From positions 682 through 64,681 of the forward strand of contig CAZSCC010000566.1 of the NCBI GenBank assembly GCA_964604905.1: a stretch of 64,000 nt of DNA, given 5' to 3'. The first letter of the stretch is position 1; every line of letters starts with the position of its first letter. The notes under the pieces were generated by a model. It searched no databases, was not told where the DNA came from, and saw nothing but the letters and a program-made list of their open reading frames with translations. Shown in pieces: positions 21,609 through 48,779 of this stretch. The stretch is from an uncultured Planctomycetales bacterium (GTDB lineage Bacteria > Planctomycetota > MHYJ01 > JACPRB01). Both the position numbers and the translations under genes were made by a program.

Positions 21609-23657
21609 TCAGGCGGACTGTTGCGACATCTCCAGCAGCGCCGCGGTCAGCGCGCCCTTGGCGGTCGCGTTGAGCGGGTCCTTTGCCAGGCGGACCTCCT
21701 TCACGGGGATCGGGAAGTCCAGGTCCTTGAAGATCGTGCGGACGAGCTCGATGAAATTTCCCGCGAGGGCGGTGCCGCCCGAGAAGACCATCGTGATCGG
21801 GTCGGCGAAGGTCGGCATGTTCTCGGCGGCGCGGAATCGCTCGGCGATGTTGCTGAGGTTGTACTGGATCAGGTTGCGGTAGTAGATGGCGATGGCGTCC
21901 TCCTCGCGGGTCCTCGGGTTCATGAGGTCCACGCCCTTCTCCTTGATGAGCGCCGCCCTTGCGGGCTTCATGTTGAGCGTCTGTCCGACGTTGAGGTCGA
22001 TCCAGTCGCCGCTCCGCGCGGTCGAGAAGGTGAGCGCCGGCATCGACATGTACGCCACGCAGACGTTGAACATGCCGCCGCCGCAGGAGACGCCGATGCC
22101 GGTGAAGTCCTCGTCGGCCAGCTCGGAGAACGTCACGGCGTGGCCCTCGATGATGTGGCGCGGCGTGTAGCCCAGCGCCCTGAGCACCGCGTCGAAGAGG
22201 TCGCGGTGGTAGGCGACGGAGAGGTCGGCGTCCACCGGTTCGCCGGGGACCGAGTAGAAGCACGATTCGCCCGTGACCCGCGGCTCGCCCAGGATCGACC
22301 CGATCAGGAGCTTCATGATGGGGAGCGCGTCCGTCTCCTTGGGCGAGATGAGCCCGTCCTTCATGGGCCGGCGCGTGTTGCGGTTGAGGACGTTGGCCAG
22401 CTCGAAGGCCTGCTCGCCCAGGACGTACATGCGGCTGCCCTGCATGAAGTAGGGGACGTTGAGCCGCGTCAGCATCGACTTCGTATAGGCCGTCGTCTCG
22501 ACGTCGATGAACGCGTTCCGGGCGAGGCGGAGCTCGACCTCGCCCTGCACGTTCTGCTCCGCGGCGACGAGGTTGACGGTCCCGATGTCGAGGCCCTTGC
22601 CGGTGAGGAGTTGGCCCGCCTTGGCGGCGGCCTTCCTCCGCTCGAGGAGCACGATCGGGATCCGCTTGGGCCCGCGGGCCTTCTCCTCCTCTTCGGCGCG
22701 GCGCGCGGCCTCCTCGGCTTCGGCGCGGGCCTTCGCCTCCTCCTCGGCACGGATCGCCTCCGCGGCCTCGGTCTCGGCCTGTTCCGCGGCGCGGCGTGCT
22801 TCCGCCGCGGCCTCGGCCTCGGCCCTGGCCTTCGCTTGTTCTTCGGCGCGGCGGGCGGCCACGGCCTCTGCCTCGACCCGCGTCTTCTCTTCTTCCTCGG
22901 CGCGGCGCGCCACGTCGGCTTCGGCCTCGGCCTGTTCCGCGGCGCGGGTCCTCTGCTCCTCCTCCTCGGCACGGCGGTCCCCCGCCTGCTTGGCGTCCTG
23001 CGCCTTCTGCTGCTCGCCCTCGAGCTGGGTCCGGAGCGAGTCCACCTCCTGGAGGGCGTCGTCGAGCTCCTGGGAGGCGCCGGCCTGCTCGTCCGCCTTC
23101 GCCCGCAGGGCCTCGAGCTCGCGCGTGAGCCGGTCGATCTCCGCCTGGAGCCTCTTGATCTCGCTCTGCGCCTTGTCCAGCTCCTCGACCATGCGATCGT
23201 GCTCCTCGCGGAGCCAGACGTTGTCCGCGAGGGACTCCTTGAGCTTGGATTCCGTGGCCTGCTGGCGGTCGATGATGTCCTTGAGCTGGGTCTTGAAGTC
23301 GGACTCGCCCTCCTCCTCGATCTGGCGGCGGAGCTTGAGCTCGTTCTGGAGTTTCTCGATCTGCGCGACGAGGTCGGTCTTGCCGGCCTCGAGCAGGTTC
23401 GCCCGGGAACCGAACTGGTCGCGCTCGGCCATGAGCTTGGAGAGTTGCTTGCGGGAGTCGGCCAGGATCTTGGTGCGCTCCTCCGCGGTCTGCGTGGAGA
23501 TGACCAGGTCGACGGCCCGCTCGATCATCTCCTGGAGCGCGGCCTCGTCGAGCACCTTGACGTTCCGCACCCCCATGCTGGCGAGGTTGGAGACCGTCGT
23601 GTGCTGCGCGCCCTGGTCGATGACCTTCTTGATGTCGAGCCGTCTGTCGTTCGCCAT
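21609..23657 (-). CDS. actin/MreB-fold (ASKHA) ATPase with a long N-terminal coiled-coil / EA-rich extension
   Basis: C-terminal ~330 aa carry GLDIGTVNLV, RPMKDGLI, GIGVSCGGGMFNV, MVFSGGTALAGNF and AKDPLNATAKGA in MreB order. The N-terminal ~350 aa are heptad-like and E/A/R/K/Q-rich. Confidence 0.8.
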   Translation of the reverse strand: MANDRRLDIKKVIDQGAQHTTVSNLASMGVRNVKVLDEAALQEMIERAVDLVISTQTAEERTKILADSRKQLSKLMAERDQFGSRANLLEAGKTDLVAQIEKLQNELKLRRQIEEEGESDFKTQLKDIIDRQQATESKLKESLADNVWLREEHDRMVEELDKAQSEIKRLQAEIDRLTRELEALRAKADEQAGASQELDDALQEVDSLRTQLEGEQQKAQDAKQAGDRRAEEEEQRTRAAEQAEAEADVARRAEEEEKTRVEAEAVAARRAEEQAKARAEAEAAAEARRAAEQAETEAAEAIRAEEEAKARAEAEEAARRAEEEEKARGPKRIPIVLLERRKAAAKAGQLLTGKGLDIGTVNLVAAEQNVQGEVELRLARNAFIDVETTAYTKSMLTRLNVPYFMQGSRMYVLGEQAFELANVLNRNTRRPMKDGLISPKETDALPIMKLLIGSILGEPRVTGESCFYSVPGEPVDADLSVAYHRDLFDAVLRALGYTPRHIIEGHAVTFSELADEDFTGIGVSCGGGMFNVCVAYMSMPALTFSTARSGDWIDLNVGQTLNMKPARAALIKEKGVDLMNPRTREEDAIAIYYRNLIQYNLSNIAERFRAAENMPTFADPITMVFSGGTALAGNFIELVRTIFKDLDFPIPVKEVRLAKDPLNATAKGALTAALLEMSQQSA
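22674..22979 (-). repeat. in-frame imperfect tandem repeats encoding an EA-rich low-complexity tract
   Basis: Protein residues ~227-328: RRAEEEEQRTRAAEQAEAEA / RRAEEEEKTRVEAEA / RRAEEQAKARAEAEA / RRAAEQAETEA / RAEEEAKARAEAEEAARRAEEEEKAR. DNA words such as ctcggcctgttccgcggcgcgg occur twice. Confidence 0.8.
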
Positions 23658-29255: not shown

Positions 29256-30041
29256 TCATGAAAATTCCATGCAGGAGAACCCGCCGTCCACGGTCAGGTG
29301 GCATCCCGTGACGAAGCTGCCCGCCTTGCGGGCGCAGAGGAAGACGATCGGGCCCATGAGCTCGGAGGCCTCTCCGAACCGGTTCATGGGCGTGTGGGCC
29401 ATGATCTTCGCGACCCGCTCGGGCTGCAGGATCTTGCGGTTCTGCTCGGCAGGGAAGAAACCCGGCGAGAGCGCGTTCACGCGGATCCCCTCCGGCGCCC
29501 ACTCGCGCGCGAGGTTCATCGTGAGGTTGAGCACCGCCGCCTTGGTCGCGCTGTACGTGAAGACGCGCGAGAGCGGCCGGATGGCCGACATCGACGAGAT
29601 GTTGACGATGGTCCCGCCCTGCTTCTGGTCGATCAGGACCTTCCCGAAGACCTGGCAGCCGAAGACGACCGACTTGTAGTTGGTCTCCAGGATCCGCTGC
29701 ATCTCCTCGTCGGAGATCTCGAGGAAGGGGGTGGGGGAGTTGGTCCCCGCGCCGTTCATGGCGATCGTGAGCTTCCCGAACTTCTTGACGGTCTCGGCTG
29801 CGACCCGCTCCAGTTCGGCTTTCTTCGTCACGTCCGCGGCGATGAAGACCGCCTCGCCGCCCGCCCTGCGGATCGCCTCCAGGCGCTTCTCCGCCTTCGC
29901 CGCGTCGCGCCCGACGATCGCCACTTTCGCGCCCGCCTGCGCCATCGCCTGGGCCATCGCACTGCAGAGTTCGCCCGTGCCGCCCGTCACGACGGCCACT
30001 TCGCCCGAGAGCGAGAACTGTTCTTCCAGGAAGGGGTTCAT
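29256..30041 (-). CDS. SDR-family oxidoreductase (sugar-acid/gluconate 5-dehydrogenase-like)
   Basis: VVTGGTGELC cofactor motif, NGAG, and the catalytic YSATKAA (YxxxK). Confidence 0.9.
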   Translation of the reverse strand: MNPFLEEQFSLSGEVAVVTGGTGELCSAMAQAMAQAGAKVAIVGRDAAKAEKRLEAIRRAGGEAVFIAADVTKKAELERVAAETVKKFGKLTIAMNGAGTNSPTPFLEISDEEMQRILETNYKSVVFGCQVFGKVLIDQKQGGTIVNISSMSAIRPLSRVFTYSATKAAVLNLTMNLAREWAPEGIRVNALSPGFFPAEQNRKILQPERVAKIMAHTPMNRFGEASELMGPIVFLCARKAGSFVTGCHLTVDGGFSCMEFS

Positions 30042-30135: not shown

Positions 30136-30819
30136 GTGATGAGCGAGAGCGTTGCGCGCGGAGGACTGGGGGAGCCCCGGACCCTCATGCCCCGGGGGAG
30201 CCGGGAAGGGGAAGTGGACCGGGTGCACCGCCTCGTCAAGGGATGGATCCTCCAGGGGCGCGCCCGCCCGGGCGAGTTCCTGGCGGAAGTGGCCCTGGCC
30301 CGGCTCTGCCGGACGAGCCGCACCCCGGTCCGCGAGGCCTGCAACCGCCTGGCCCAGGAGGGCTGGCTCTCCCACATCCGCCACAAGGGGTACCTCGTCC
30401 CCCCTCTCTCCGTGCGGGAGATCGTCGACGTCTACGAGTACCGGAAGCTCCTCGAGGGCTTCACGGCGGAGAAAGCCGCCCGGACGGCCGGGGCAGAGCA
30501 GATCGAGGTGCTGAAGGCAACCCTCGAGGCCGAGCGGAATCCCCGCTCCACGCAGGGCGAGCTCGTCGCGGCCAACCACCGGTTCCACCTCGGCCTCGCG
30601 GAGATCGCGGGGAACCAGCGGGTCCTGGACCAACTGAAGCATCTCCTTGAGTACGTCGACCGCCTCGACCTCCTGTCGCTGGAGAAGGACCGCGCCGTCG
30701 TCCGCCACGACGAGATCGTCCGGGCGGTCGCGGCGCACAATCCGCGGACGGCGCAGCGGGCCATGCTGGCCCACATTGATTCCGCCCGCGACCGCATGGT
30801 GAAGCTCTTCGGGACATAA
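30136..30819 (+). CDS. GntR-family transcriptional regulator (FadR/FCD type)
   Basis: Winged-HTH segment FLAEVALARLCRTSRTPVREACNRLAQEGWL followed by a helical FCD-like C-terminal domain. GTG at 30136 or ATG at 30139. Confidence 0.9.
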   Translation: MMSESVARGGLGEPRTLMPRGSREGEVDRVHRLVKGWILQGRARPGEFLAEVALARLCRTSRTPVREACNRLAQEGWLSHIRHKGYLVPPLSVREIVDVYEYRKLLEGFTAEKAARTAGAEQIEVLKATLEAERNPRSTQGELVAANHRFHLGLAEIAGNQRVLDQLKHLLEYVDRLDLLSLEKDRAVVRHDEIVRAVAAHNPRTAQRAMLAHIDSARDRMVKLFGT

Positions 30820-30832
30820 TAAGAGAGACCTT

Positions 30833-32215
30833 ATGAAGCGGCGCGAGTTCCTCCGGGCCGGACTCTCCGGGTTCGCGAGCCTCTCGCTCCCGGGGCTCTT
30901 CCGTCTGCGCGCGGCGACGGCCCAGGAGGCGAAGCCCAGGACGGCCGTCATCCTGGTCTGGCTGCGCGGAGGGGCCTCCCACCTCGAGACGTACGACCCC
31001 AAGCCCGAGGCGTCGTCCGAATTCCGCGGCATCTTCGGCCCCCTCTCCACGCGCGTGCCCGGCCTGCGGGTCAGCGAACTGCTCCCGCTCCACGCGAAGA
31101 TCGCCGACAAGTTCACGCTGGTCCGCTCGATGTCCCACACCGGCGGAGGCCATCCGGCCGGCTCGCTCCAGATGCTCGGCGGCGATCCCGACCCGCAGGA
31201 CAAGCAGCGGCCGATCTATCCCGACTGGATGACGGTGGCCAACCTGCTGCGCGCCGACCGCGCCCGTCCGCTGCCGAACTACGTCGGCGTGAACCCGGTC
31301 TCCACCTACGACGGCTTCGTCATCGCGGGCTCCGGCTACGTGAGCCCGGCTTACGGCCCCTTCTCCGTGACGGGCGACCCCAGCGACCCCCGCTTCGAGG
31401 TCCCCAACATCGGCCTCCGGGACCCGGCCCAGGCGGAGCGGCTCGGCGAGCGTGTCCGGCTCAGCCGACGGCTCGACGGCCTCGCGCGGGCCGCGGATCA
31501 CTCGGGGGCGATGAAGACGATCGACGACTTCGAGGGGCAGGCGCTCAAGCTCCTGACCAGCCCCTCGGCCCGGGAGGCCTTCGACCTGACGCGCGAGCCG
31601 GACCGCGTCCGCGACCGCTACGGCCGCCACGCCTGGGGGCAGCAGTGCCTCATGGCCCGCCGGCTCGTCGAAGCCGGCGTGGAGATCGTCACGACGACCT
31701 TCGACGGCCCGCTCTGCGGGCGTGTCGGCAACTGGGACGACCACGCGGTCAACCACCACATCTTCGACGCGATGAAGTTCAGGGCGCCCGTCTTCGACCA
31801 GGCCGTCAGCGCCCTGATCGAGGACGTCACCGCGCGGGGCCTGGACAAGCGGGTGCTCGTGGTCGTCACCGGCGAGTTCGGTCGGACGCCGCGCCTGACC
31901 GAGGTGGCCAGCAGCGGCGGCGGGGTCGCGAGCGGCCCGGTGGGGACGGTCCAGCCCGGCCGCGACCACTGGCCGCGGGCCTTCTCGCAGCTTTGGGCGG
32001 GCGGCGGCATCGAGACGGGCTGCGTGATCGGCGCCACGGACAAGCGGGGCGAGGAGGTGGTCGAGCGGAGGTTCTCGACCGGGGATTTCCTGGCCACGAT
32101 CTACCGCCATCTGGGCATCCCGGCGGAGCAGGTGGCGCTCCCCGATTTCTCCGGGCGGCCCACGCCGATCCTCACCCACGGCGCGCCGATCCCGGAGTTG
32201 AAGGGACGGTCCTGA
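30833..32215 (+). CDS. DUF1501 domain protein (Tat signal)
   Basis: MKRREFLRAGLSGFASL twin-arginine signal, TGEFGRTPR, GRDHW. Confidence 0.9.
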   Translation: MKRREFLRAGLSGFASLSLPGLFRLRAATAQEAKPRTAVILVWLRGGASHLETYDPKPEASSEFRGIFGPLSTRVPGLRVSELLPLHAKIADKFTLVRSMSHTGGGHPAGSLQMLGGDPDPQDKQRPIYPDWMTVANLLRADRARPLPNYVGVNPVSTYDGFVIAGSGYVSPAYGPFSVTGDPSDPRFEVPNIGLRDPAQAERLGERVRLSRRLDGLARAADHSGAMKTIDDFEGQALKLLTSPSAREAFDLTREPDRVRDRYGRHAWGQQCLMARRLVEAGVEIVTTTFDGPLCGRVGNWDDHAVNHHIFDAMKFRAPVFDQAVSALIEDVTARGLDKRVLVVVTGEFGRTPRLTEVASSGGGVASGPVGTVQPGRDHWPRAFSQLWAGGGIETGCVIGATDKRGEEVVERRFSTGDFLATIYRHLGIPAEQVALPDFSGRPTPILTHGAPIPELKGRS

Positions 32216-32234
32216 CGCCCCAGCCCCCGGCGGC

Positions 32235-32912
32235 TCAGAAGCCGGGCTTCTCGGAGCTGAGCGAGACGGAGGGCGCCTGGCCCGGCGAAGGCGACGTGGC
32301 CTGGACCCCCCACTGGAATGGCCCTCGCACGGCGGCATTGCAGGCGGCTTTCGGAAAGTCGGCCTGCAGGAGCTTGATCAGCCGCCCGGCCAGCGCCTTC
32401 TTCCCGTCGTTGCCGTAGTCCCTGAGGCGTTCGGTCTCGACGAAGACCGACGCCTTCTTCGCCGTCGCGGGATCGGGTCCGTCGAGCTCGACGGAGACGC
32501 TCACCTTGCCCGAGAGCCCGGCCTGCTTTTCGAACTCGAGGACCGAAAGCCGGTACGCGCCCGCCTTCGACTCCGCGATCGGATGGGAGCCGCTCGCGAG
32601 GTTCGCGGAGAGCTTCCCGGTCGCCGACTTCGCCTGCTCCTTCACCCGCGACTGCTCGTTGAACCCCGCGGGCCAGAGGAAGGTGGCGATCCCGACGCCG
32701 GCGACCAGGACGCCCCAGGCGGGGAGCTTTCCGTCGCGGACCCGGGGGTCGCGGCGCGCGAGGAGGATCACGGTCACGCCCCAGGCGATGCAGCCCGCGC
32801 CCCCCGCCCGCACATCCTTGAGCCCGAGCATCATCGCGACCCCGCAGGCCACGAGCCCGACGACGGCGCCCACGATCTTGATCAGGCAACCGCCGCCACT
32901 CAGGAGGATCAT
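32235..32912 (-). CDS. hypothetical membrane protein
   Basis: Three N-terminal hydrophobic segments (IVGAVVGLVACGVAMMLGL, CIAWGVTVILLA, WGVLVAGVGIATFLW) and a soluble C-terminus. Starts 9 nt after the HEAT gene. Confidence 0.6.
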   Translation of the reverse strand: MILLSGGGCLIKIVGAVVGLVACGVAMMLGLKDVRAGGAGCIAWGVTVILLARRDPRVRDGKLPAWGVLVAGVGIATFLWPAGFNEQSRVKEQAKSATGKLSANLASGSHPIAESKAGAYRLSVLEFEKQAGLSGKVSVSVELDGPDPATAKKASVFVETERLRDYGNDGKKALAGRLIKLLQADFPKAACNAAVRGPFQWGVQATSPSPGQAPSVSLSSEKPGF

Positions 32913-32921
32913 CGCTCCATT

Positions 32922-33914
32922 CTACCGCATCCGCTCGAGGGCCCGCGCAGCCTTCGAACGGACCGCCTCGCGGGGATCCCCCAGGGCCTTGCGGATCGAA
33001 GCGACGGCCTCTCCCGCTTCGAGCTGAACGAGGGCGTCCAGGGCCGCGAGGCGTTCGTCCTCCCGCTCGGACGACAGCAGGTCGATGAGCGCAGGAACGG
33101 CTTTGCGGACGCCGAGTTCGGCAAGCGATCGGGCCGCGCTTCCTCGAGCGCCGTCCTTGGTTCGAAGCTCCGCCAGGAGAGCTGGAGAGGCCTCGGGAAC
33201 GCGCAACTTTCCCGCCGCGCGGATCGCCGCCGCGCGGAGGCCGCCCGGTTTTGATCCCAGGAACGGCGCGATCTTCTCCCATGACTCGCGGATGCCGAGA
33301 TCGCTCAGGGTGAGGATCGCTTGTTCGGCCACCGATGGATCCCGGTCCTGCAGGGCCGCCACGATCGCGGGAAAGTCCGCCTTCGATCCCAACTCGCCGA
33401 CCGCCCAGACGGCGCTCACGCGGATTTCCCCGGACCGATCACCCAGAAGCTTCCGGGCCTCGGGAAGGATGAGGACGTGCTTCCATGCCACCGCATGTCC
33501 GAGGATGAGGCGCTTCTCGTCCACCGTCGCAGCGCCGCGGTCCGCCGCGCCCGCCAGGAGGGCAAGGTCCTCTCCATCCAGCGGCGGGTCGACGGTCGTC
33601 TGCACGATACGGAGGTACAACTCGGCGAAGCTGCGGTCATCGCGCCGCTCGGCCCGGTCGAAGAGGTCGGGCAGCTCCCGGAGTAGTTTAGGCGTGACCA
33701 TCCGGTCGAGGAGCCCGCGGGAACGGGCGGCCACTTCGCTGTCGGGGTCCCGTGCCCCCCGCCTGAGAACGGGAAGGGCGGCCTCCCCGAGGGACTTGAG
33801 GCCGGCCACGGCGGCGTCCCGCTCGGCGATATCGGCCGAACGGAGCATTTCCAGCAGCCGGCCAGGGTCATCCTGGATCGACGCCAGGACGAAGGCCGCC
33901 AGGACGGGAAACAT
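32922..33914 (-). CDS. HEAT-repeat protein
   Basis: Repeated units such as RDAAVAGLKSLGEAALPVL, RVSAVWAVGELGSKADFPAIVAALQD, RAAAIRAAGKLRVPEASPALL, RGSAARSLAELGVRKAVPALIDLL. ATG at 33914; the track ORF extension overlaps the FHA gene. Confidence 0.75.
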   Translation of the reverse strand: MFPVLAAFVLASIQDDPGRLLEMLRSADIAERDAAVAGLKSLGEAALPVLRRGARDPDSEVAARSRGLLDRMVTPKLLRELPDLFDRAERRDDRSFAELYLRIVQTTVDPPLDGEDLALLAGAADRGAATVDEKRLILGHAVAWKHVLILPEARKLLGDRSGEIRVSAVWAVGELGSKADFPAIVAALQDRDPSVAEQAILTLSDLGIRESWEKIAPFLGSKPGGLRAAAIRAAGKLRVPEASPALLAELRTKDGARGSAARSLAELGVRKAVPALIDLLSSEREDERLAALDALVQLEAGEAVASIRKALGDPREAVRSKAARALERMR

Positions 33915-33958
33915 CCCCTGTTGAACGGAGGAGGCGGGCCTGAGGTTCGGCTTCTCGG

Positions 33959-35671
33959 CTAACCCAGTTCCCGGACCTGCGCGTCCAGGAGCAGCACCTC
34001 GGCGATCTGCGCGCGCTCGGTCTCGAGCGGGACGCCGCGGTCGACGACGCTCCGGCCCAGTCGCAAGAGCGAGCGCTCGAGGCGGAGCTCGGCGTTCTTC
34101 AGTTCGTGCCTGGCGAGGATCACGTCCTTCGCGGGGGTCGTCCCGCCGTCCCCGCCGCAGCGGCGCCTCGAGACCTCGAGTTCCTGGGAGACCTTCTCGA
34201 CCGCGTCGGCCTCGGCGCAGGGGATCTTCGAGACGCGGGCTGCCGCGCCCACCCGGCGGAGGAGGTCGTCCCTCTTCCGGAAGAGGAGCGCCTTCTCGTG
34301 CGCCCGCCTGCCGGTCATGTCGCGAAATATCCGGAGGGTCGTCCCGCTCGCGAGCGCCGCTGCGCCCTTCACCGAGCCCCAGAGCTTCTTGGGGTGGGAG
34401 AGGGGCGTGGCCTCGCGCAGGTCGCGCCGCAGCCAGACGGAGAGGAGGACCGCGACGCCGGAGAGCATCGCCAGGTGAAGGCCGACCCCGCCGCTTGCCG
34501 CCGGGTCGAGCGCGAGGGCGATCAGGCGGGTCATGCCGATCCCCGCGACCAGGGCCGGCGCGGCGACGATCGCCATGAGGACACGGCCCTCCGGGGCTCG
34601 CGAGCGGTCCTTGAGGAGTGCGAGCACGGTCGTCCCGCCGAATAGGACGAGCGCGACGAGGCCGAGGCCCTTTATCCCCGGCGTGGTCGCGCCGTCCGCG
34701 TGGCGGGTCCATGGGAGGAAGGAGGCGAGCATCCCGATCCAGGCGGCGAGGACGAAGAGCTGACGCTGCGGATGGACGCCCGGCGCGAGCTTCGCGAAGA
34801 CGCGGCGGAAAGCCTCGCTAGGTTTCACGCGAGCGCGAGGAGGAGGAGGCGGTTCGGGCGGCGGCTCCCCAAGCGCGATGCCCGGCCCGACCGCGTAGCG
34901 GAAGATCGCGTCGCCGATCCGGATGCGGTCGCCGGGCAGGAGCGCGCGGGGGACCGCGAGGCGCTCGCCGTTCACGTAGGTGCCGTTGCGGCTGTCGAGG
35001 TCGGCGAGGACGTGCTGCCGGGTCACGGCCGAGAACTCGAGGCGCGCGTGGTTGCGGGACGAGCCCATATCGGGCACGGGGACCTCGTGGGAGCTCATGC
35101 GCCCGATCATCGCGGCGGCGCCCACGGGAAAGGGCTCGTGCCGCCCCGCGGAGGTCTCCAGGATGAGCCACGCGCCCGGGTCCGCGGGGGCGGCGGCCGG
35201 GGCCGCGACGACGGGGACCTCCTTCGTCTCCACGTCGAGTTCCTCGTCGGAAATCGCGCCCTTCCGGAGCCTCTCCTGGGCGGCGAGGAGCGCGCTGAGC
35301 GCCTGGGTCGAGATCGCGCCCTTCTCGAGGAGGATCTCACCGAGCTTTGCGAGAGCTCCGGTCTGATGGACGAGGGCGGCGCCGATGTCTTCCTCCCGGG
35401 CGAAGCCGTTCCGGACGGCAAGGGAGCCCAGGCGGGTCTCCACCTCGGCGACTGCGCCCTCCCGCTGGACCTGGAGGATCCGGCGGATCTGGTTGGAGCT
35501 CAGCAGGCCGCGGCGGCGGCAGATTTCGCCGAGCGGGGCGGGGGCCTTCTCCTGCTCCTCGAGGACGGCGTCCAGGGCTTCCTTCGTCAGCCGACCGGTC
35601 TGCAGGGCGATCGTGCCGAACAGGAGGGCGGGATTGACGGCGGCCACGATAGGTTCTCCCATCCTCTCCAC
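33959..35671 (-). CDS. membrane protein with two N-terminal MshEN-type (c-di-GMP-binding-like) motif pairs, an FHA domain, 4-5 TM segments and a C-terminal coiled coil
   Basis: Four 24-residue matches to (R)LGxxLLxxGLLxxxxLxxxLxxQ in two pairs, each with a 5-residue spacer. FHA pattern IGRMSSHEVPVPDMGSSRNHARLEF...SRNGTYVNGERL. Hydrophobic segments follow. Confidence 0.8.
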   Translation of the reverse strand: MERMGEPIVAAVNPALLFGTIALQTGRLTKEALDAVLEEQEKAPAPLGEICRRRGLLSSNQIRRILQVQREGAVAEVETRLGSLAVRNGFAREEDIGAALVHQTGALAKLGEILLEKGAISTQALSALLAAQERLRKGAISDEELDVETKEVPVVAAPAAAPADPGAWLILETSAGRHEPFPVGAAAMIGRMSSHEVPVPDMGSSRNHARLEFSAVTRQHVLADLDSRNGTYVNGERLAVPRALLPGDRIRIGDAIFRYAVGPGIALGEPPPEPPPPPRARVKPSEAFRRVFAKLAPGVHPQRQLFVLAAWIGMLASFLPWTRHADGATTPGIKGLGLVALVLFGGTTVLALLKDRSRAPEGRVLMAIVAAPALVAGIGMTRLIALALDPAASGGVGLHLAMLSGVAVLLSVWLRRDLREATPLSHPKKLWGSVKGAAALASGTTLRIFRDMTGRRAHEKALLFRKRDDLLRRVGAAARVSKIPCAEADAVEKVSQELEVSRRRCGGDGGTTPAKDVILARHELKNAELRLERSLLRLGRSVVDRGVPLETERAQIAEVLLLDAQVRELG

Positions 35672-35753
35672 GTCGGACTGGGCTCGGCCGAGGAATCGTT
35701 CAATATTATATCCCCCGGGCGTCCGGGAGCAAGGATCGGGAGAAGAAGGGCGG

Positions 35754-37781
35754 CTACGCCCGGCGTGTCTGGACGATCTTCTGCCGGGAGGCCACGATCT
35801 CCTCCGCCAGGCTGAACGGCACCGGCTCGTAGTGGTCGAAGGTCATCGTGAAGGTGGCCTTGCCGCTCGAGAGGGTGCGCACCTGGGTGGAGTAGCCGAA
35901 CATCGAGCCCAACGGGACGTAGGCGCGGATCTCGTGGTTGACGCCCTTCTGCTCCATCGCCTCGATCCGGCCGCGGCGGGAGGCGAGATCGCCGTTCACG
36001 CCCCCCAGGTACTCCGCGGGGGTGACCACGCTGACGGACATGACGGGCTCGAGGAGCGCGGGTGCGGCCTTCCGGAAGAGCTCCTTGAAGGCCATCGACG
36101 CGCAGGTGAAGAACGCGCGCTCGCTCGAATCGACGTCGTGATAGTCGCCGTCGGTGAGCGTCACGCGGAGGTCGACAACCGGGAAGGCCGCGTAGGGGCC
36201 CTTCTGCATCGCGTCGATCACGCCCTTCTCGACGGCGGGGACGTACTCCCTGGGGACATTGCCGCCCTTGACGTCGTTGACGAACTCGAAGCCGCTCCCG
36301 GAGGGGAGGGGCTCGCAGCTGAGGCAGACGCGGGCGAAGTCGCCCTTGCCGCCGGTCTGCTTCTGGAGCTTGTGGTCGACCTCGGAGGCCGCGGTCGCGG
36401 TCTCGCGGTAGGCCACCTGGGGGCGGCCGACCTTCGCCATGACGTTGTGCTCGCGCTTGAGACGGTCCACCAGGATCTCGAGGTGGAGCTCGCCCATGCC
36501 CGACATGATCGTCTCCTCGGTCTCCTGGTCGAAGCTGACGATGAACGTCGGGTCCTCCTCGGCCAGCTTGGCGAGGGCATACGAGAGCTTGTCCCGGTCG
36601 CCGCGCGACTCGGGGGTGATGGAGACCGAGATGACGGGGGAGGGGAACTCGATGGCCTCGAGCTGCACGGGGTGCTCGGGGTCGCAAATCGTGTTGCCGG
36701 TCAGGGTCTTGTCGAAGCCGATGACGGCGCCGATCTCGCCGGCGTCCAGGTACTCGCGGGCGATCGGCTTGTTGGCGTGCATCTCGACGAGGCGGCCGAC
36801 GCGCTCGCGATGGTTGCGGGTGCTGTTGAGCACGTAGGATCCCGCGTCGAGGCGGCCGCGGTAGACGCGGACGTAGGTCAGTTTGTTGTGGCGGTCGCTG
36901 AAGATCTTGAAGGCGAGCGCGGCGAGCGGTCCCTCCTCGATCTTGGGGGCCGGTAGGTAGTCGATGACGGCGTCGAGGAGCCGCTGGATGCCGATGTTGC
37001 GGGCGGCGGAGCCGCAGAGGACCGGATGGATCGAGCGGGCGAGCGTCGCCTTGCGGAGCGCCGCGCGGATCTCCAGCTCGCTGGGCTCCACCCCGGAGAC
37101 GAACTTCTCGAGGAGGCTCTCGTCCTGCTCGGAGACCTTCTCGACGAGGTTCTTCCGCCACTTGTGGGCCTCGTCCTTCCACGCCTCGGGGATGGGCCGC
37201 TCCTCGACGTGGAGCTGCCCCTTGGTCTCGTGGAAGAGGACCTCGCAGTTCTTGACCAAGTCGATGAGGCCGTTGAACTGCTCCTGCTTGCCGACAGGGA
37301 GGACGATGGGGACGGCGTTCCCGCCGAGCTCCTTCTGGATCTTCTCGACGACGTCGAAGAAGTCGGCGCCCGTGCGGTCCATCTTGTTGATGAAGCAGAT
37401 CGAAGGCACCTGGTATTTCTCGGCCTGGCGCCAGACGGTCATGGACTGGGGTTCGACACCGCCGACGCCGCAGAAGAGGGCCACGGCGCCGTCCAGGACG
37501 CGGAGCGAGCGTTCGACCTCGACGGTGAAGTCGACGTGGCCGGGGGTGTCGATCAGGTTGATGCGGTGGTCCCGCCACTCGACGGCGGTGGCGGCGGCGG
37601 TGATGGTGATGCCGCGCTCGCGCTCCTGGTCCATCCAGTCGAGGGCCGTGTTCCCGTCGTCCACCTCGCCGATCTTGTGGGTGCGGCCGGTGAAGAATAG
37701 GATGCGCTCGCTCGTGGTGGTCTTCCCCGAGTCGATGTGCGCGATGATGCCGATGTTGCGGATCTTGCTGGCGTCGATCAT
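35754..37781 (-). CDS. fusA: elongation factor G family GTPase
   Basis: RNIGIIAHIDSGKTT (G1), DTPGHVDF (G3), NKMDR (G4), and EF-G domains II-V in collinear order. ATG at 37781 (alternative at 37814); the track ORF extension upstream is rejected. Confidence 0.9.
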   Translation of the reverse strand: MIDASKIRNIGIIAHIDSGKTTTSERILFFTGRTHKIGEVDDGNTALDWMDQERERGITITAAATAVEWRDHRINLIDTPGHVDFTVEVERSLRVLDGAVALFCGVGGVEPQSMTVWRQAEKYQVPSICFINKMDRTGADFFDVVEKIQKELGGNAVPIVLPVGKQEQFNGLIDLVKNCEVLFHETKGQLHVEERPIPEAWKDEAHKWRKNLVEKVSEQDESLLEKFVSGVEPSELEIRAALRKATLARSIHPVLCGSAARNIGIQRLLDAVIDYLPAPKIEEGPLAALAFKIFSDRHNKLTYVRVYRGRLDAGSYVLNSTRNHRERVGRLVEMHANKPIAREYLDAGEIGAVIGFDKTLTGNTICDPEHPVQLEAIEFPSPVISVSITPESRGDRDKLSYALAKLAEEDPTFIVSFDQETEETIMSGMGELHLEILVDRLKREHNVMAKVGRPQVAYRETATAASEVDHKLQKQTGGKGDFARVCLSCEPLPSGSGFEFVNDVKGGNVPREYVPAVEKGVIDAMQKGPYAAFPVVDLRVTLTDGDYHDVDSSERAFFTCASMAFKELFRKAAPALLEPVMSVSVVTPAEYLGGVNGDLASRRGRIEAMEQKGVNHEIRAYVPLGSMFGYSTQVRTLSSGKATFTMTFDHYEPVPFSLAEEIVASRQKIVQTRRA

Positions 37782-37940
37782 AGGTCCCTGATTAGAAAAC
37801 CGAAGGCGGGGCATATTAGCGGGAAGGGGGCCGGAATGCAACGGGGAAACGGGGGCCGGGGGTGGAATGCGGGACCGCGGAGGCGGCTGCGGGGAGTGCT
37901 GGACTTGACCCGGACCGCCCCTCATAATGCCGGGCGAATC

Positions 37941-46133: not shown

Positions 46134-48779
46134 CTACCAGGTCCTGCGGTCGGCCAGCATCGCCTCGGCCTGCACGGGGACGACAGGCTTGGAGAAGATG
46201 TAGCCTTGGGCGTACTCGCAGCGGAGCGCCCGGAGGGCCGCCAGTTGCTCGGGGGTCTCGACCCCTTCCGCGATCACGTTGATGTCGAGGTTCTGGGCGA
46301 GCGAGATGATCGTCCGCACGATCTCGTGGCCTTCCCCCACCGAGCCCATCCGACCCACGAACGAGCGGTCGATCTTGAGCGCGTCGATCGGAAACTTGTG
46401 GAGGTAGGAGAGGGACGAATAGCCGGTCCCGAAATCGTCGAGGTAGAACCGCGCGCCGCCGCGGCGGATGTTCTCGAGGATCGCGTTGGCGGCGTCGGCG
46501 CCGTCCATGAGGACGCTCTCGGTGATCTCCAGGCCGAGCGAGTCGCCGTGCAGCCCGGTCGACTGGAGGGTGCTCTCGATGTAGTGGGCGAGGTCCGCCT
46601 GGCCGAACTGGCGGCCGGAGAGGTTGACGCTCACCGAGAGCGGCCGGGCCTTGGGGAATTTCAGGTGCCACTCCTGGAGTTGCCGGCACGCCTCGCGGAG
46701 CACCCAGCGGTCGATGTCGATCACGAGGCCGGTCTCCTCGGCCATCTTGATGAATTCGCCGGGCGCGACGAGCCCGCGACCGGGGTGGTTCCAGCGGACG
46801 AGGGCTTCAAAGCCCGAGATGCGTCCGTCCTGCAGGGAGACGACCGGCTGGTAGTGGACGACGAACTCCTGCCGCTCGATGGCGCGGCGAAGGTCGGTCT
46901 CCATCTTGAAAATGTGGAGCGCGCGGGCGTGCATGGCGCGGTCGAAGACCTCGTGGCGCGCGCCGCCATTCGATTTCGCGCGGTACATGGCGATGTCGGC
47001 GTCGCGAAGGATGTCGTCCGTCTTCTCGTAGCCGGTCTCGCTGAGCGCGACGCCGATGCTCGCGCTCGTGAAGATCTCCTGGCCGCCGAGCAGGATGGGC
47101 TGCCTGAACTGCGCCTGGATGCGGTCCGCCACCTGCGAGGCATCGGCGCCGTCCTTCACGTCCTCGAGGAGGACGGTGAACTCGTCGCCGCCGAGGCGGG
47201 CGGCGGTGTCCCCGGGCCGCACGCAGCGCTCGATGCGGCGGGAGACCTCGATCAGGAGCTGGTCGCCGGCGAGGTGGCCGAGGCTGTCGTTGACCACCTT
47301 GAATCGGTCGAGGTCGAGGAAGAGGACCGCGAAGCGCAAGTCCTTCCGGCGGAGCGCGAGGCGGAGGCACTGGCCGAGGCGGTCCATGAAGAGCGCGCGG
47401 TTGGGGAGTCCGGTGAGCGCGTCGTGGAACGCGTCGTGGATGAGCTGCTCCTCGAGGGACTTGCGCTCGGTGATGTCGGTGGCGGTGACGACGTAGAACC
47501 GGGGCGCGCCGTCGTGGCCGGCGAGCGACGTCCGCGACCAGCTGATCCGGGGACGGCTCCCGTTCTTCGTCACCCACGAGTGCTCGAAGAGGTCCGAGGT
47601 GGGCGCGTCGTGGCCCTGCGAGAGGATGGTGCGGCCCTGCTCGACGTCCTCCGGGGACAGGAAGAGCGGGGCGAAGGGGAGCCCTCTTACCTCGTCGGGC
47701 GAGTGGCCCATCGTGTGGGCGCACTGCCGGTTGATCCGCACGACCCGGAGCGACGCGTCCAGGACGATCACCATGATGTTGGCGGTGTCGAGGACGGCGG
47801 AGACGAAGTTGCGCTCCTCGCGGAGCGCCTCCTCCGCGCGGCGCCGGCCTTCGGCCTCGATCGCGAGCGAGGCCATGTCGGCGATCGACGAGGCGAACTC
47901 CTGTTCCTCGAGCGTCCACTCGCGGGCCGGCCCGACGTGCTCGTAGCAGAGGACGCCTGCCAGCTTGCCGTGGAGGCGCACGGGGACGTCCATCATGGAC
48001 GTGATTCCGAGCGGCTTTAGGTAGCCCTCCGTGAACTCGGCGGTGCGGGGGTCCTTCCGCGCGTCGTCGGCCGGCACGACGCGGCTCTCCTCGAGCGCCC
48101 CGAAGTAGCGGGGGTAATCGCGCGCGGCGAGGCGCATGCCCTGCTCGTAGACCCGCGCGTCGAGCCGGTAGAGGAGCCGGCACTGGATGTCGCTGTGGTC
48201 CTCGTTGAACAGCCACAAGCCCACGCGCTCCACCTTCAGCATCTGGGAGGAACAAAGGGTCAGCCTCCGCAGGGCGGGCTCGAGGTCCGAAGAGTCGAGC
48301 CGGGCGAGCTCAAGGAGCGCCTCCTGGTAGCGGTGGACGAGGTCGGTCCGCTTCAGGAGCGCCTCGCGGGAGCGCCGTCGTTCCGCGGCGTAGCGGACGG
48401 ACCGGACGAGGAGGTACGGGTCGAGCCGGTTCTTGAAGAGGAGATCGAGCGCTCCCCGCTGGGCGGCGAGCGTGGGAGTGCATCCCAAGGACGAATGGGC
48501 CAGGGCGATCACGGGGACGCCCGGGGCGCCTTGGCGGAAGCGGTCAATGGCGTCGAGCCCGGGGGCGTCCGGGAGCGCCAGGTCGAGGAGCGCGACGTCG
48601 TGGGGCTGCTGGGCGTGCCGCTCGAGGGCCGCGTCGAGCCGGGTCGCATGGCTGATCGAGAAGTTGAGGAGCGGCTTGACGGTGTCTAGCATCGACATGA
48701 TGAGCTTGACGTCTACGGGGTCGTGCTCGATGAGGAGGATGCGGAAGGGCTCGCGCCGGTCGGTTCTGGAACTGTCCAT
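46134..48779 (-). CDS. response-regulator receiver / GAF / PAS / GGDEF / EAL protein
   Basis: REC (ILLIEHDPVD...VALLDLALPD), RLGGDEFTVLL, GFEALVRWNHP, DDFGTGYSSLSYL. Confidence 0.9.
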   Translation of the reverse strand: MDSSRTDRREPFRILLIEHDPVDVKLIMSMLDTVKPLLNFSISHATRLDAALERHAQQPHDVALLDLALPDAPGLDAIDRFRQGAPGVPVIALAHSSLGCTPTLAAQRGALDLLFKNRLDPYLLVRSVRYAAERRRSREALLKRTDLVHRYQEALLELARLDSSDLEPALRRLTLCSSQMLKVERVGLWLFNEDHSDIQCRLLYRLDARVYEQGMRLAARDYPRYFGALEESRVVPADDARKDPRTAEFTEGYLKPLGITSMMDVPVRLHGKLAGVLCYEHVGPAREWTLEEQEFASSIADMASLAIEAEGRRRAEEALREERNFVSAVLDTANIMVIVLDASLRVVRINRQCAHTMGHSPDEVRGLPFAPLFLSPEDVEQGRTILSQGHDAPTSDLFEHSWVTKNGSRPRISWSRTSLAGHDGAPRFYVVTATDITERKSLEEQLIHDAFHDALTGLPNRALFMDRLGQCLRLALRRKDLRFAVLFLDLDRFKVVNDSLGHLAGDQLLIEVSRRIERCVRPGDTAARLGGDEFTVLLEDVKDGADASQVADRIQAQFRQPILLGGQEIFTSASIGVALSETGYEKTDDILRDADIAMYRAKSNGGARHEVFDRAMHARALHIFKMETDLRRAIERQEFVVHYQPVVSLQDGRISGFEALVRWNHPGRGLVAPGEFIKMAEETGLVIDIDRWVLREACRQLQEWHLKFPKARPLSVSVNLSGRQFGQADLAHYIESTLQSTGLHGDSLGLEITESVLMDGADAANAILENIRRGGARFYLDDFGTGYSSLSYLHKFPIDALKIDRSFVGRMGSVGEGHEIVRTIISLAQNLDINVIAEGVETPEQLAALRALRCEYAQGYIFSKPVVPVQAEAMLADRRTW

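Follow-up and report, generated by a model that had tools for sequence, protein, structure and literature searches.

The MshEN/T2SSE_N domain is a high-affinity receptor module for cyclic di-GMP (c-di-GMP), and FHA domains bind phosphothreonine (pThr). MshEN is a main class of c-di-GMP receptor, and its studied examples gate ATPases or glycosyltransferases. Here we describe a gene which specifies both kinds of domain on one polypeptide. It lies in a 64,000-nucleotide stretch of DNA, referred to here as the window, taken from contig CAZSCC010000566.1 of an uncultured freshwater Planctomycetales bacterium (assembly GCA_964604905.1), and occupies positions 33959..35671 on the (-) strand. Its product is probably a membrane-anchored c-di-GMP receptor and adaptor, the FHA domain of which recruits or releases a pThr ligand. 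A receptor with a pThr reader as its sole other recognisable domain would directly link second-messenger and Ser/Thr-kinase signalling.

According to the accessible text on Vibrio cholerae MshE (PMC5013675), the ligand is contacted in MshEN_N by motif positions 1, 2, 3, 17, 21 and 24, while the Gly at motif position 10 forms a turn and the central hydrophobic positions form the core. MshEN_N alone, without MshEN_C, binds c-di-GMP with a dissociation constant (KD) of 0.35 uM. The same text records (MshEN_N)2 tandems and fusions of MshEN to kinases, receivers, cyclases and glycosyltransferases, and lists among the changes in the non-binding XpsE a Gly-to-Val at position 3 and an Ile-to-Arg at position 11. 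The available part of PMC11731258 describes the Arg at motif position 1 as dispensable in PilF: domain GSPII-B, with Lys (K167) and Leu (L196) at this position, binds with a KD of 6 nM, and GSPII-C, with Pro (P335) at position 1 of its second motif, with a KD of about 460 nM, while GSPII-A has one degenerate motif and does not bind.

Among FHA proteins, GarA/OdhI and DgcB are described as binding their own phosphorylated tails, the pattern for self-recognition being a hydrophobic residue at -3, Glu at -2, Ser at +1 and a hydrophobic residue at +2 (PMC6733907, in its accessible portion). An ETTS motif is given for a self-recognising FHA protein in the accessible portion of PMC8546545.

Gene product and domain order

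The open reading frame (ORF) consists of 570 codons when counted from the GTG at 35671, and residues are numbered from this codon throughout. The true start is probably the GTG at 35647, giving a protein of 562 residues, because a database copy (P0002) has this length, most N-termini of the homologues fall in line with it, and the sequence GGGAGA is found 7 nt upstream of this codon. In the alignment most homologues start about four residues ahead of the first motif. The choice between the two codons leaves the other results unaffected.

From the N- to the C-terminus the protein is composed of two MshEN_N-type units, a linker containing Thr149, an FHA domain, a Pro-rich linker, four transmembrane (TM) helices and a helical C-terminal domain. 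The identity, order and conservation of these domains, their predicted folds and the topology are established here. The parts are all known; the combination of MshEN_N with FHA is rare and uncharacterised. The initial annotation, made from the sequence, could name no characterised protein with this architecture, and literature searches on MshEN or T2SSE_N with FHA gave none either. No description of an MshEN_N and FHA fusion, or of this membrane family, was found in the literature searched (MshEN/T2SSE_N with FHA; Planctomycetes with MshEN), and the terms "FHA" and "forkhead" have 0 occurrences in the accessible supplementary text (two files) accompanying Wang et al. 2016 (PMC5013675).

The N-terminal units

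Four 24-residue segments resembling the MshEN motif had been pointed out in the initial annotation, and they are present letter for letter at residues 17-40, 46-69, 80-103 and 109-132. Unit 1 (residues 17-69, 35465..35623 (-)) is made up of motifs 1 and 2 with the spacer EKAPA (41-45), and unit 2 (residues 80-132, 35276..35434 (-)) of motifs 3 and 4 with the spacer TGALA (104-108). As to the proposal that these form two MshEN-type motif pairs, the second pair is intact; the first is divergent and agrees with the relaxed motif (PMC5013675) at 9/11 constrained positions in each of its motifs. A chance control was made by scoring the 96,405 stop-free 24-mers from the six frames of the window on these 11 positions. 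Just two fitted at 11/11, and these were segments 3 and 4, so that motif pair 2 is far beyond chance from the motif alone. The score of segments 1 and 2 is reached or exceeded (at least 9/11) by 51 24-mers of the window; motif pair 1 alone is therefore not above background and requires other evidence.

The motifs of unit 2 begin R-L-G and K-L-G and satisfy all constrained positions. In unit 1, position 1 is Leu in motif 1 and Pro in motif 2, and Phe is found at position 2 of motif 1. The unit nevertheless keeps the contact positions 1, 2, 3, 17, 21 and 24, which read L-F-G..L..L..Q and P-L-G..I..L..Q, and with them Gly3, Gly10, hydrophobic residues at 17 and 21, and Gln24. It departs from the relaxed motif at core positions (11 of motif 1; 6-7 of motif 2) and at position 1 (Leu). 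Over the family, nearly all four motifs have invariant residues at positions 2, 3, 10, 21 and 24. Among 12 aligned homologues with 40-86% identity to the query, the invariant residues of unit 1 are F18, G19, G26, L33, L37 and Q40 in the first motif and G48, G55, L57, L66 and Q69 in the second, and those of unit 2 are L81, G82, G89, L100 and Q103, followed by G111, G118, L129 and Q132.

NCBIfam holds a 53-position model, NF053729 ([quoted passage not shown], cut-off 38 bits), which matches the protein in two stretches with an E-value of 9.6e-16 and 57.3 bits; the better stretch places residues 80-132 on model positions 1-53. All 12 aligned family members match this model at E<=1e-5. Searched against the PDB, the single sequence matches Thermus PilF [E 6.6e-8], and a profile of 13 N-terminal regions (A2) matches PilF [2.3e-13], Geobacter PilB [1.9e-6] and V. 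cholerae MshE [5HTL, 2.1e-6]. The last alignment spans chain residues 8-62 of MshE, that is, its c-di-GMP site. Residues 79-148 also show a weak match to the MshEN region of NfrB [NF008411, E 1.3e-6].

In an AlphaFold model made for residues 12-140, with a predicted local distance difference test score (pLDDT) of 87.2, there are two units, each folded as helix-turn-helix-loop-helix-turn-helix. The top Foldseek rows are c-di-GMP-bound MshE (5htl; 53 columns, root-mean-square deviation [rmsd] 0.9 A, 36% identity) and PilF's GSPII-B domain (8pfa; 53 columns, rmsd 0.8 A, 40% identity). Foldseek and VIA runs on the full-length model are dominated by FHA matches. In VIA-align with that model, residues 12-72 align with 5htl_B (58 positions, Z 9.9, rmsd 1.8) and residues 76-135 with 8pdk_A (57 positions, Z 9.8, rmsd 1.8). 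The N-terminus is homologous to the c-di-GMP-binding MshEN_N, as the initial annotation had held, on the evidence of the curated profile, the PDB profile match to MshE and the structural superposition. Weak Pfam matches to DUF4388 and FumaraseC_C on the N-terminus were set aside. A helical hairpin common to both proteins is the probable cause of the fumarase match, as chains of fumarase and aspartase are also found low in the Foldseek list.

Because the PilF residues K167, L196 and P335 are binding-competent precedents, Leu, Pro and Lys at motif position 1 are compatible with binding. We infer from the sequence that the protein binds c-di-GMP and, through its FHA domain, pThr. Judged by its motifs, unit 2 is the best candidate c-di-GMP site and is likely to bind the nucleotide; for unit 1, with its divergent motifs, binding is conceivable but somewhat less probable than its failure.

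The FHA domain and the Thr149 linker

The FHA domain (residues 167-261, 34889..35173 (-)) is canonical and carries the signatures G190-R191, S205-R206-x-H208 and S227-R228-N229-G230-T231. Its presence, predicted in the initial annotation, was confirmed by a profile search with PF00498 (residues 189-253, E 1.9e-14, 54.2 bits against a cut-off of 20.7), and in the model VIA gives Z values of 14-15.5 to EmbR, FhaA, GarA and DgcB. The pThr-loop residues G190, R191, S205, R206, H208, S227, N229, G230 and T231 are invariant in 12/12 members, and in the alignment the loop residues fall on those that bind phosphate in FhaA and DgcB.

Between unit 2 and the FHA domain the chain is predicted to be disordered (pLDDT below 50). 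This linker contains the motif E-L-D-V-E-T-K-E-V-P around Thr149 (35213..35242 (-)), a candidate phospho-acceptor and FHA ligand. Thr149 is invariant in the family alignment, where the motif takes the form E-L-D-x-E-T-[K/R]-E-V-P. A Thr preceded directly by an acidic residue (-1), with Val, Ile, Leu or Met at +3 and located before the first FHA strand, was found in 21/22 proteins with both MshEN_N and FHA and in 0/6 matches with FHA only. The +3 residue is what FHA domains read. The surroundings of Thr149 (Asp at -3, Val at -2, Glu at -1, Lys/Arg at +1 and Glu at +2) do not match the tail pattern for self-recognition, and because the flanking pattern differs we take Thr149 as a lead and not as a sign of membership in the self-recognising class. 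A complex prediction for the FHA domain (163-266) with the unphosphorylated linker (131-162) returned a score of 0.00 and a mark of 0.32, which counts neither way.

Membrane bundle and C-terminal domain

After the FHA domain comes a Pro-rich, low-confidence linker (residues 268-282, 34826..34870 (-)) identified from the translation and the model confidence; it includes PPPEPPPPP at 270-278, much as described in the initial annotation. An amphipathic helix then precedes the membrane helices in the model. The bundle itself (residues 301-415, 34427..34771 (-)) consists of four TM helices at 301-316, 336-352, 363-388 and 396-415; of the four to five segments suggested earlier, no fifth was found. 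The predicted cytoplasmic segments contain 6, 3 and 5 Lys plus Arg residues and the two short outer loops 2 and 0. By the positive-inside rule both termini of the bundle are on the inner side, and from this distribution it follows that the sensor cassette and the C-terminal domain are both cytoplasmic. The protein is polytopic, as had been proposed, with both sensor domains on the cytoplasmic side according to the model and the charge counts. On the periplasmic side the loops are short, of about 7-19 residues.

The C-terminal domain (residues 427-569, 33965..34393 (-)) is all-helical, with four long helices at a pLDDT near 90, and recurs in other proteins with and without the TM bundle. Neither it nor the bundle matched any Pfam or NCBIfam family, and a search of the Protein Atlas with residues 285-570 gave no usable match. 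Compared with claudins, the bundle (model residues 296-421) reaches Z 10.8 to a designed fold, 9.9 to claudin-19 and 9.7 to claudin-15, values in a range (below about 13) that is common for helical bundles.

Family and modularity

A word-indexed search returned 23 proteins at E<=1e-3, of which 12 cover at least 96% of the query. This full-length set is composed of the protein's own copy and 11 others with 36-86% identity, all from metagenome-assembled genomes of Planctomycetota, and the homologues are named in their sources only "FHA domain-containing protein" or "hypothetical protein". Of 61 related genomes, 10 gave a match at E<=1e-20, this genome being one of them; a full-length copy was found only in a genome of the same genus (G004, 64% identity). 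Of 251 genomes sampled evenly across the phylum, 7, again including this one, match the 2xMshEN_N-FHA cassette at E<=1e-18, and only four of the 251 have matches spanning both domains: G000 (this genome), G030 (with five copies), G144 and G020. This is a small family, restricted to uncultured Planctomycetota. A search for longer proteins holding the whole cassette gave FHA-level matches only, which is weak evidence that there are none.

What follows the cassette varies. In L014/L029 it is a four-TM bundle without the helical domain, and in L015/L031 and L030 the helical domain without a TM bundle. Two of the G030 paralogues (L032:1450-3264 (+) and L037:1462-2640 (+)) have, by reading of the sequence, a Cys-rich segment (CxxC...CxxC) and/or a SHOCT-like tail and no TM bundle, and in L034 there are further MshEN-like repeats. 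The 2xMshEN_N-FHA arrangement is modular and rare, and it is joined to C-termini of several kinds.

The C-terminal half was also followed independently. An exhaustive HMMER search of 1.84 billion proteins with residues 285-570 matched 68 cluster representatives at E<=1e-3, and 16 of these also passed E<=1e-10. When 22 of the 68 were scanned, 14/22 carried NF053729 N-terminally and 7/22 had an FHA domain as well. The four-TM bundle is also found alone, as proteins of 125-150 residues, and behind GYF_2 or zinc-ribbon domains. The TM4-helical module occurs by itself in L033, and in L038 it is preceded by one MshEN_N unit and an FHA domain that has decayed. This survey therefore suggests that the stable association is that of MshEN_N units with the membrane/helical module, the FHA domain being a frequent middle piece.

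Signalling domains in the genome

A genome-wide scan gave 61 matches to NF053729 in 48 distinct open frames, 115 to Pkinase in 112, 21 to FHA in 21 and 17 to GGDEF in 14. A Pkinase domain is present in 25 of the 48 MshEN_N frames, two of which were checked with Pfam; half of the MshEN_N-bearing frames in this genome are, then, themselves kinases. Examples of such MshEN_N-Ser/Thr kinases are L006 (Pkinase at residues 109-330) and L011 (146-395). If their MshEN_N units bind c-di-GMP, the genome holds a large set of potentially c-di-GMP-regulated kinases.

The ORF described here is the only frame in the genome with both MshEN_N and FHA. A 588-residue frame on contig C750 has FHA and GGDEF, a DgcB-like architecture, and three neighbouring frames on C518 (438, 444 and 587 residues) combine FHA with Pkinase. 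Given this heavy apparent cross-wiring of c-di-GMP and Ser/Thr phosphorylation, a pThr reader which senses c-di-GMP is plausible.

Genomic neighbourhood and transcription

Upstream of the ORF, across an 82-bp spacer, is a gene for EF-G (35754..37850 (-), start uncertain). The same neighbour is kept upstream of the orthologue at locus L013 (89% identity between the two EF-G genes); we set aside a meaningful link, as two loci, the window and L013, are too few to interpret. The spacer contains a perfect TATAAT hexamer at 35705..35710 (-), a candidate -10 box about 35-55 nt 5' of the candidate start codons and unusual in DNA of about 70% G+C, so the gene may have its own promoter. A consensus promoter scan passed over this hexamer, with a -35 match of only 3/6; that scan found 0 promoter-like sites, and one terminator-like hairpin at the EF-G stop codon against 1.8 expected from shuffles, which is not significant.

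Downstream, on the same strand, are genes for a HEAT-repeat protein (32922..33914 (-), 44-bp gap, HEAT_2 E 1.4e-27) and a 225-residue membrane protein (32235..32912 (-), 9-bp gap) which has no Pfam or NCBIfam family. The initial annotation placed the three genes in one operon. Both neighbours are indeed there, closely spaced and on one strand, but the arrangement is not conserved: at L013, the locus of an orthologue with 63% identity, an SDR gene follows directly, with no HEAT or membrane gene. This SDR gene is a homologue of that at 29256..30041 of the window. What is missing between the orthologous flanks at L013 is a block of the HEAT and membrane genes together with genes for a DUF1501 protein and a GntR/FCD regulator (the latter two within 30136..32215 (+)), which therefore represents a lineage-specific insertion or loss. 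At L014 and L015 the neighbours are unrelated (pyruvate kinase, epimerase), and tblastn with the HEAT protein gave no match in the 7-kb flanks of either.

There is, nevertheless, some recurrence. Residues 1-70 of the HEAT protein form a leader consisting of a short hydrophobic start and a conserved HEAT-like helix pair. A 773-residue HEAT protein with the same leader is encoded two genes downstream of the cassette paralogue L049 (L049:1498-3819 (+)) in a genome of the same genus, and another protein sharing it (L038:2520-3758 (-); 43% identity over 63 residues, E 3e-10) is encoded next to, and convergent with, the TM4-CC paralogue at L038. In all, the leader is encoded near three MshEN/TM4-helical members, in three genomes of the genus, as part of HEAT or other proteins that otherwise differ. 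Such HEAT proteins have many paralogues, with 45 matches in this genome, and because of their number we regard this as a weak recurrent association and not as an operon.

The two GGDEF-EAL enzymes reported in the initial annotation are encoded in the window as stated, a REC-GAF-PAS-GGDEF-EAL protein at 46134..48779 (-) and a PAS-PAS-GGDEF-EAL protein at 53519..55963 (-). No Ser/Thr kinase or PP2C phosphatase was found among the 41 window proteins scanned. The window has a G+C content of about 69% and contains the planctomycete signature genes PSD1/PSCyt1/PSCyt2 and two DUF1501 genes. Elsewhere in it a 682-residue protein (21609..23657 (-)) matches the Pfam family Volactin (PF25216) over its C-terminal 320 residues, with an E-value of 6.8e-79.

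The gene has no listed holder recorded as RNA. Short contigs identical to parts of the gene occur in two runs with the label "METAGENOMIC RNA-Seq", and these may be DNA. Runs X3 and X4, from a second freshwater-sediment study, contain short contigs without differences to 32200..36200 of the window; the same or a near-identical strain is therefore present beyond the probable source samples.

Proposed function and alternatives

On the reading which we favour, the gene product would be an inner-membrane signalling adaptor without an enzymatic domain. Its cytoplasmic sensor cassette comprises the two MshEN_N-type four-helix units, each of the 53-residue kind with which MshE and PilF bind one c-di-GMP, a flexible acidic linker (with a conserved Glu-Thr-[Lys/Arg]-x-[Val/Ile/Leu]-Pro motif) and the pThr-binding FHA domain, while the four-helix membrane bundle and the cytoplasmic helical domain would anchor the protein and probably oligomerise it. 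c-di-GMP would bind at least to unit 2, and probably to both units, and would shift the position of the N-terminal arm relative to the FHA domain, which might then capture or release a pThr ligand at the membrane. The ligand could be the protein's own phospho-Thr149, or a partner on which one of the genome's Ser/Thr kinases, more than 100 in number, has acted.

A bolder version, which appears doubtful to us, would make the protein a coincidence detector joining the c-di-GMP and Hanks-kinase networks via a GarA-like switch at Thr149. c-di-GMP would have two targets, first the MshEN_N-Ser/Thr kinases, by which Thr149 would be phosphorylated, and then the two MshEN_N units of the protein itself; phospho-Thr149 would be captured, in cis or in trans as for DgcB, by the FHA domain of the same protein or of a neighbour, and this binding would drive assembly or disassembly of the 4TM-helical membrane scaffold. 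If this were true, the 2xMshEN_N-FHA part would be a movable logic cassette ("c-di-GMP AND pThr") that recurs with TM4, helical-domain and Zn-ribbon/SHOCT modules for localisation.

A number of observations weigh against a c-di-GMP-responsive adaptor. Single units score 37.1 (unit 2) and 35.7 bits (unit 1) in the genome scan, just below the NF053729 cut-off. The Foldseek E-values are weak (0.19-0.24 for the 53-residue superpositions, none at E<=0.001), and since AlphaFold has seen 5HTL the agreement in fold partly reflects likeness to solved structures. Unit 1 has Cys-Arg at positions 6-7 of motif 2 and, at position 11 of motif 1, an Arg which corresponds to the Ile-to-Arg change in the non-binder XpsE. 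The spacers, called exactly canonical in the initial annotation, have the 5 residues of the canonical form in this protein and 10 and 12 in the distant members P0010-P0012 of the family alignment. The assignment to T2SSE_N likewise did not hold at the level of Pfam, where PF05157 gave no match even at E<=10 with the whole protein, its first 140 residues or each 70-residue half of these. This last negative is uninformative, however: in the PilB-like ATPase of this genome (L004) the motif unit is at residues 5-55 and the PF05157 match at 58-141, directly after it, so the Pfam model covers essentially the C-terminal alpha/beta (MshEN_C) subdomain. As the model misses proteins with MshEN_N only, these are annotated by their other domains alone, which constitutes an annotation gap. 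Finally, the two GGDEF-EAL genes are unlinked, 10-20 kb away, no kinase, phosphatase or c-di-GMP enzyme is encoded next to the gene, and its neighbourhood is not conserved.

Several of these points would suit MshEN_N-like units which are helical docking modules without c-di-GMP binding, the protein then being an FHA-type membrane scaffold. The N-termini of XpsE/GspE, GSPII-A of PilF and the N-terminus of Xanthomonas PilB, which binds a PilZ protein, are precedents, and PilB(N)-PilZ complexes (7lkn, 7lkm) are among the Foldseek matches. That GSPII-A has similar motifs and no binding, that each motif of unit 1 has just 9/11 relaxed positions and one of them the XpsE-like Arg at position 11, that spacer length is not conserved in the family and that PF05157 does not match would all agree with it. 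We nevertheless think it unlikely, for unit 2 fits at 11/11 in both motifs around a canonical spacer, the ligand-contact positions are invariant in 12/12 homologues whereas known non-binders deviate at several of them, and the whole protein scores above the cut-off of the curated c-di-GMP-motif model. A fixed three-part complex with the downstream HEAT-repeat and 225-residue membrane proteins was considered as well; it would account for the three closely spaced genes on one strand and for the leader-bearing proteins encoded near the paralogues at L049 and L038. It is hard to reconcile with the lack of both genes beside the 63%-identical orthologue, the negative tblastn results in the L014 and L015 flanks and the 45 HEAT matches in the genome. 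The signal-like hydrophobic start of the HEAT protein, moreover, suggests that it may be periplasmic and thus apart from the cytoplasmic domains, and we regard such a complex as improbable.

Least convincing, with only a slim chance of being correct, is a role as regulatory subunit of an envelope machine, that is, a pilus, secretion or gliding apparatus. The idea is attractive in that scaffolds combining FHA and TM segments (GltG, TagH/Fha, YscD, FipA) act there and MshEN normally gates a motor ATPase, being found classically on the ATPases of type II secretion systems and type IV pili (PMC5013675, accessible text). There are also weak similarities to GltG [E 5.7e-6; 25.2 bits against an equivalog cut-off of 650], to FhaB/FipA [NF049868, 51.8 bits against 125, in the FHA core only] and to the YscD cytoplasmic domain [33.8 against 33.2]. 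All of these fall inside the FHA fold (residues 185-260), however; the short periplasmic loops are unlike those of GltG or YscD, and no pilus, secretion or gliding gene was found near the gene in the window or at the orthologue and paralogue loci examined. The membrane-anchored c-di-GMP receptor and adaptor with an FHA domain remains our preferred description. With so few members, all of them in uncultured Planctomycetota, the family offers a pay-off that would be mechanistic rather than broad.

Comparison with known systems

With V. cholerae MshE (5HTL, PMC5013675) the protein shares the two 24-residue motifs, the 5-residue spacer and the 53-residue four-helix unit. It differs in having two such units in tandem, with no MshEN_C alpha/beta subdomain and no ATPase, and in having Leu, Pro, Arg and Lys at motif position 1, which is Arg in both MshE motifs. 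PilF is the best PDB sequence match and, as far as the available text of PMC11731258 describes it, also has consecutive units and non-Arg residues at position 1; it is, in contrast, a soluble hexameric pilus ATPase in which each GSPII domain retains its C-terminal subdomain.

GarA/OdhI and the Bdellovibrio DgcB resemble it, according to the accessible parts of PMC8546545 and PMC6733907, in the flexible segment before the FHA domain, where a Thr is conserved and the residue at +3 is hydrophobic, while their Glu at -2 and Ser at +1 are replaced here by Glu at -1 and Lys/Arg at +1. In DgcB, too, FHA/pThr signalling is tied to c-di-GMP, the difference being that DgcB makes the nucleotide and this protein would sense it.

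FhaB/FipA (Rv0019c), GltG and YscD similarly have a cytoplasmic FHA domain tethered to the inner membrane. They are without MshEN units, and the present protein is without a sizeable periplasmic domain. E. coli NfrB, reportedly a c-di-GMP-activated membrane glycosyltransferase carrying an MshEN domain, is likewise a membrane protein with a receptor of this type; it has a single MshEN, an enzymatic output domain and no FHA domain. There are, lastly, the 25 MshEN_N-Ser/Thr kinase fusions of the same genome, which have the same N-terminal receptor unit and the same pThr currency: these proteins write the phospho-mark, whereas the one described here carries the domain that reads it.

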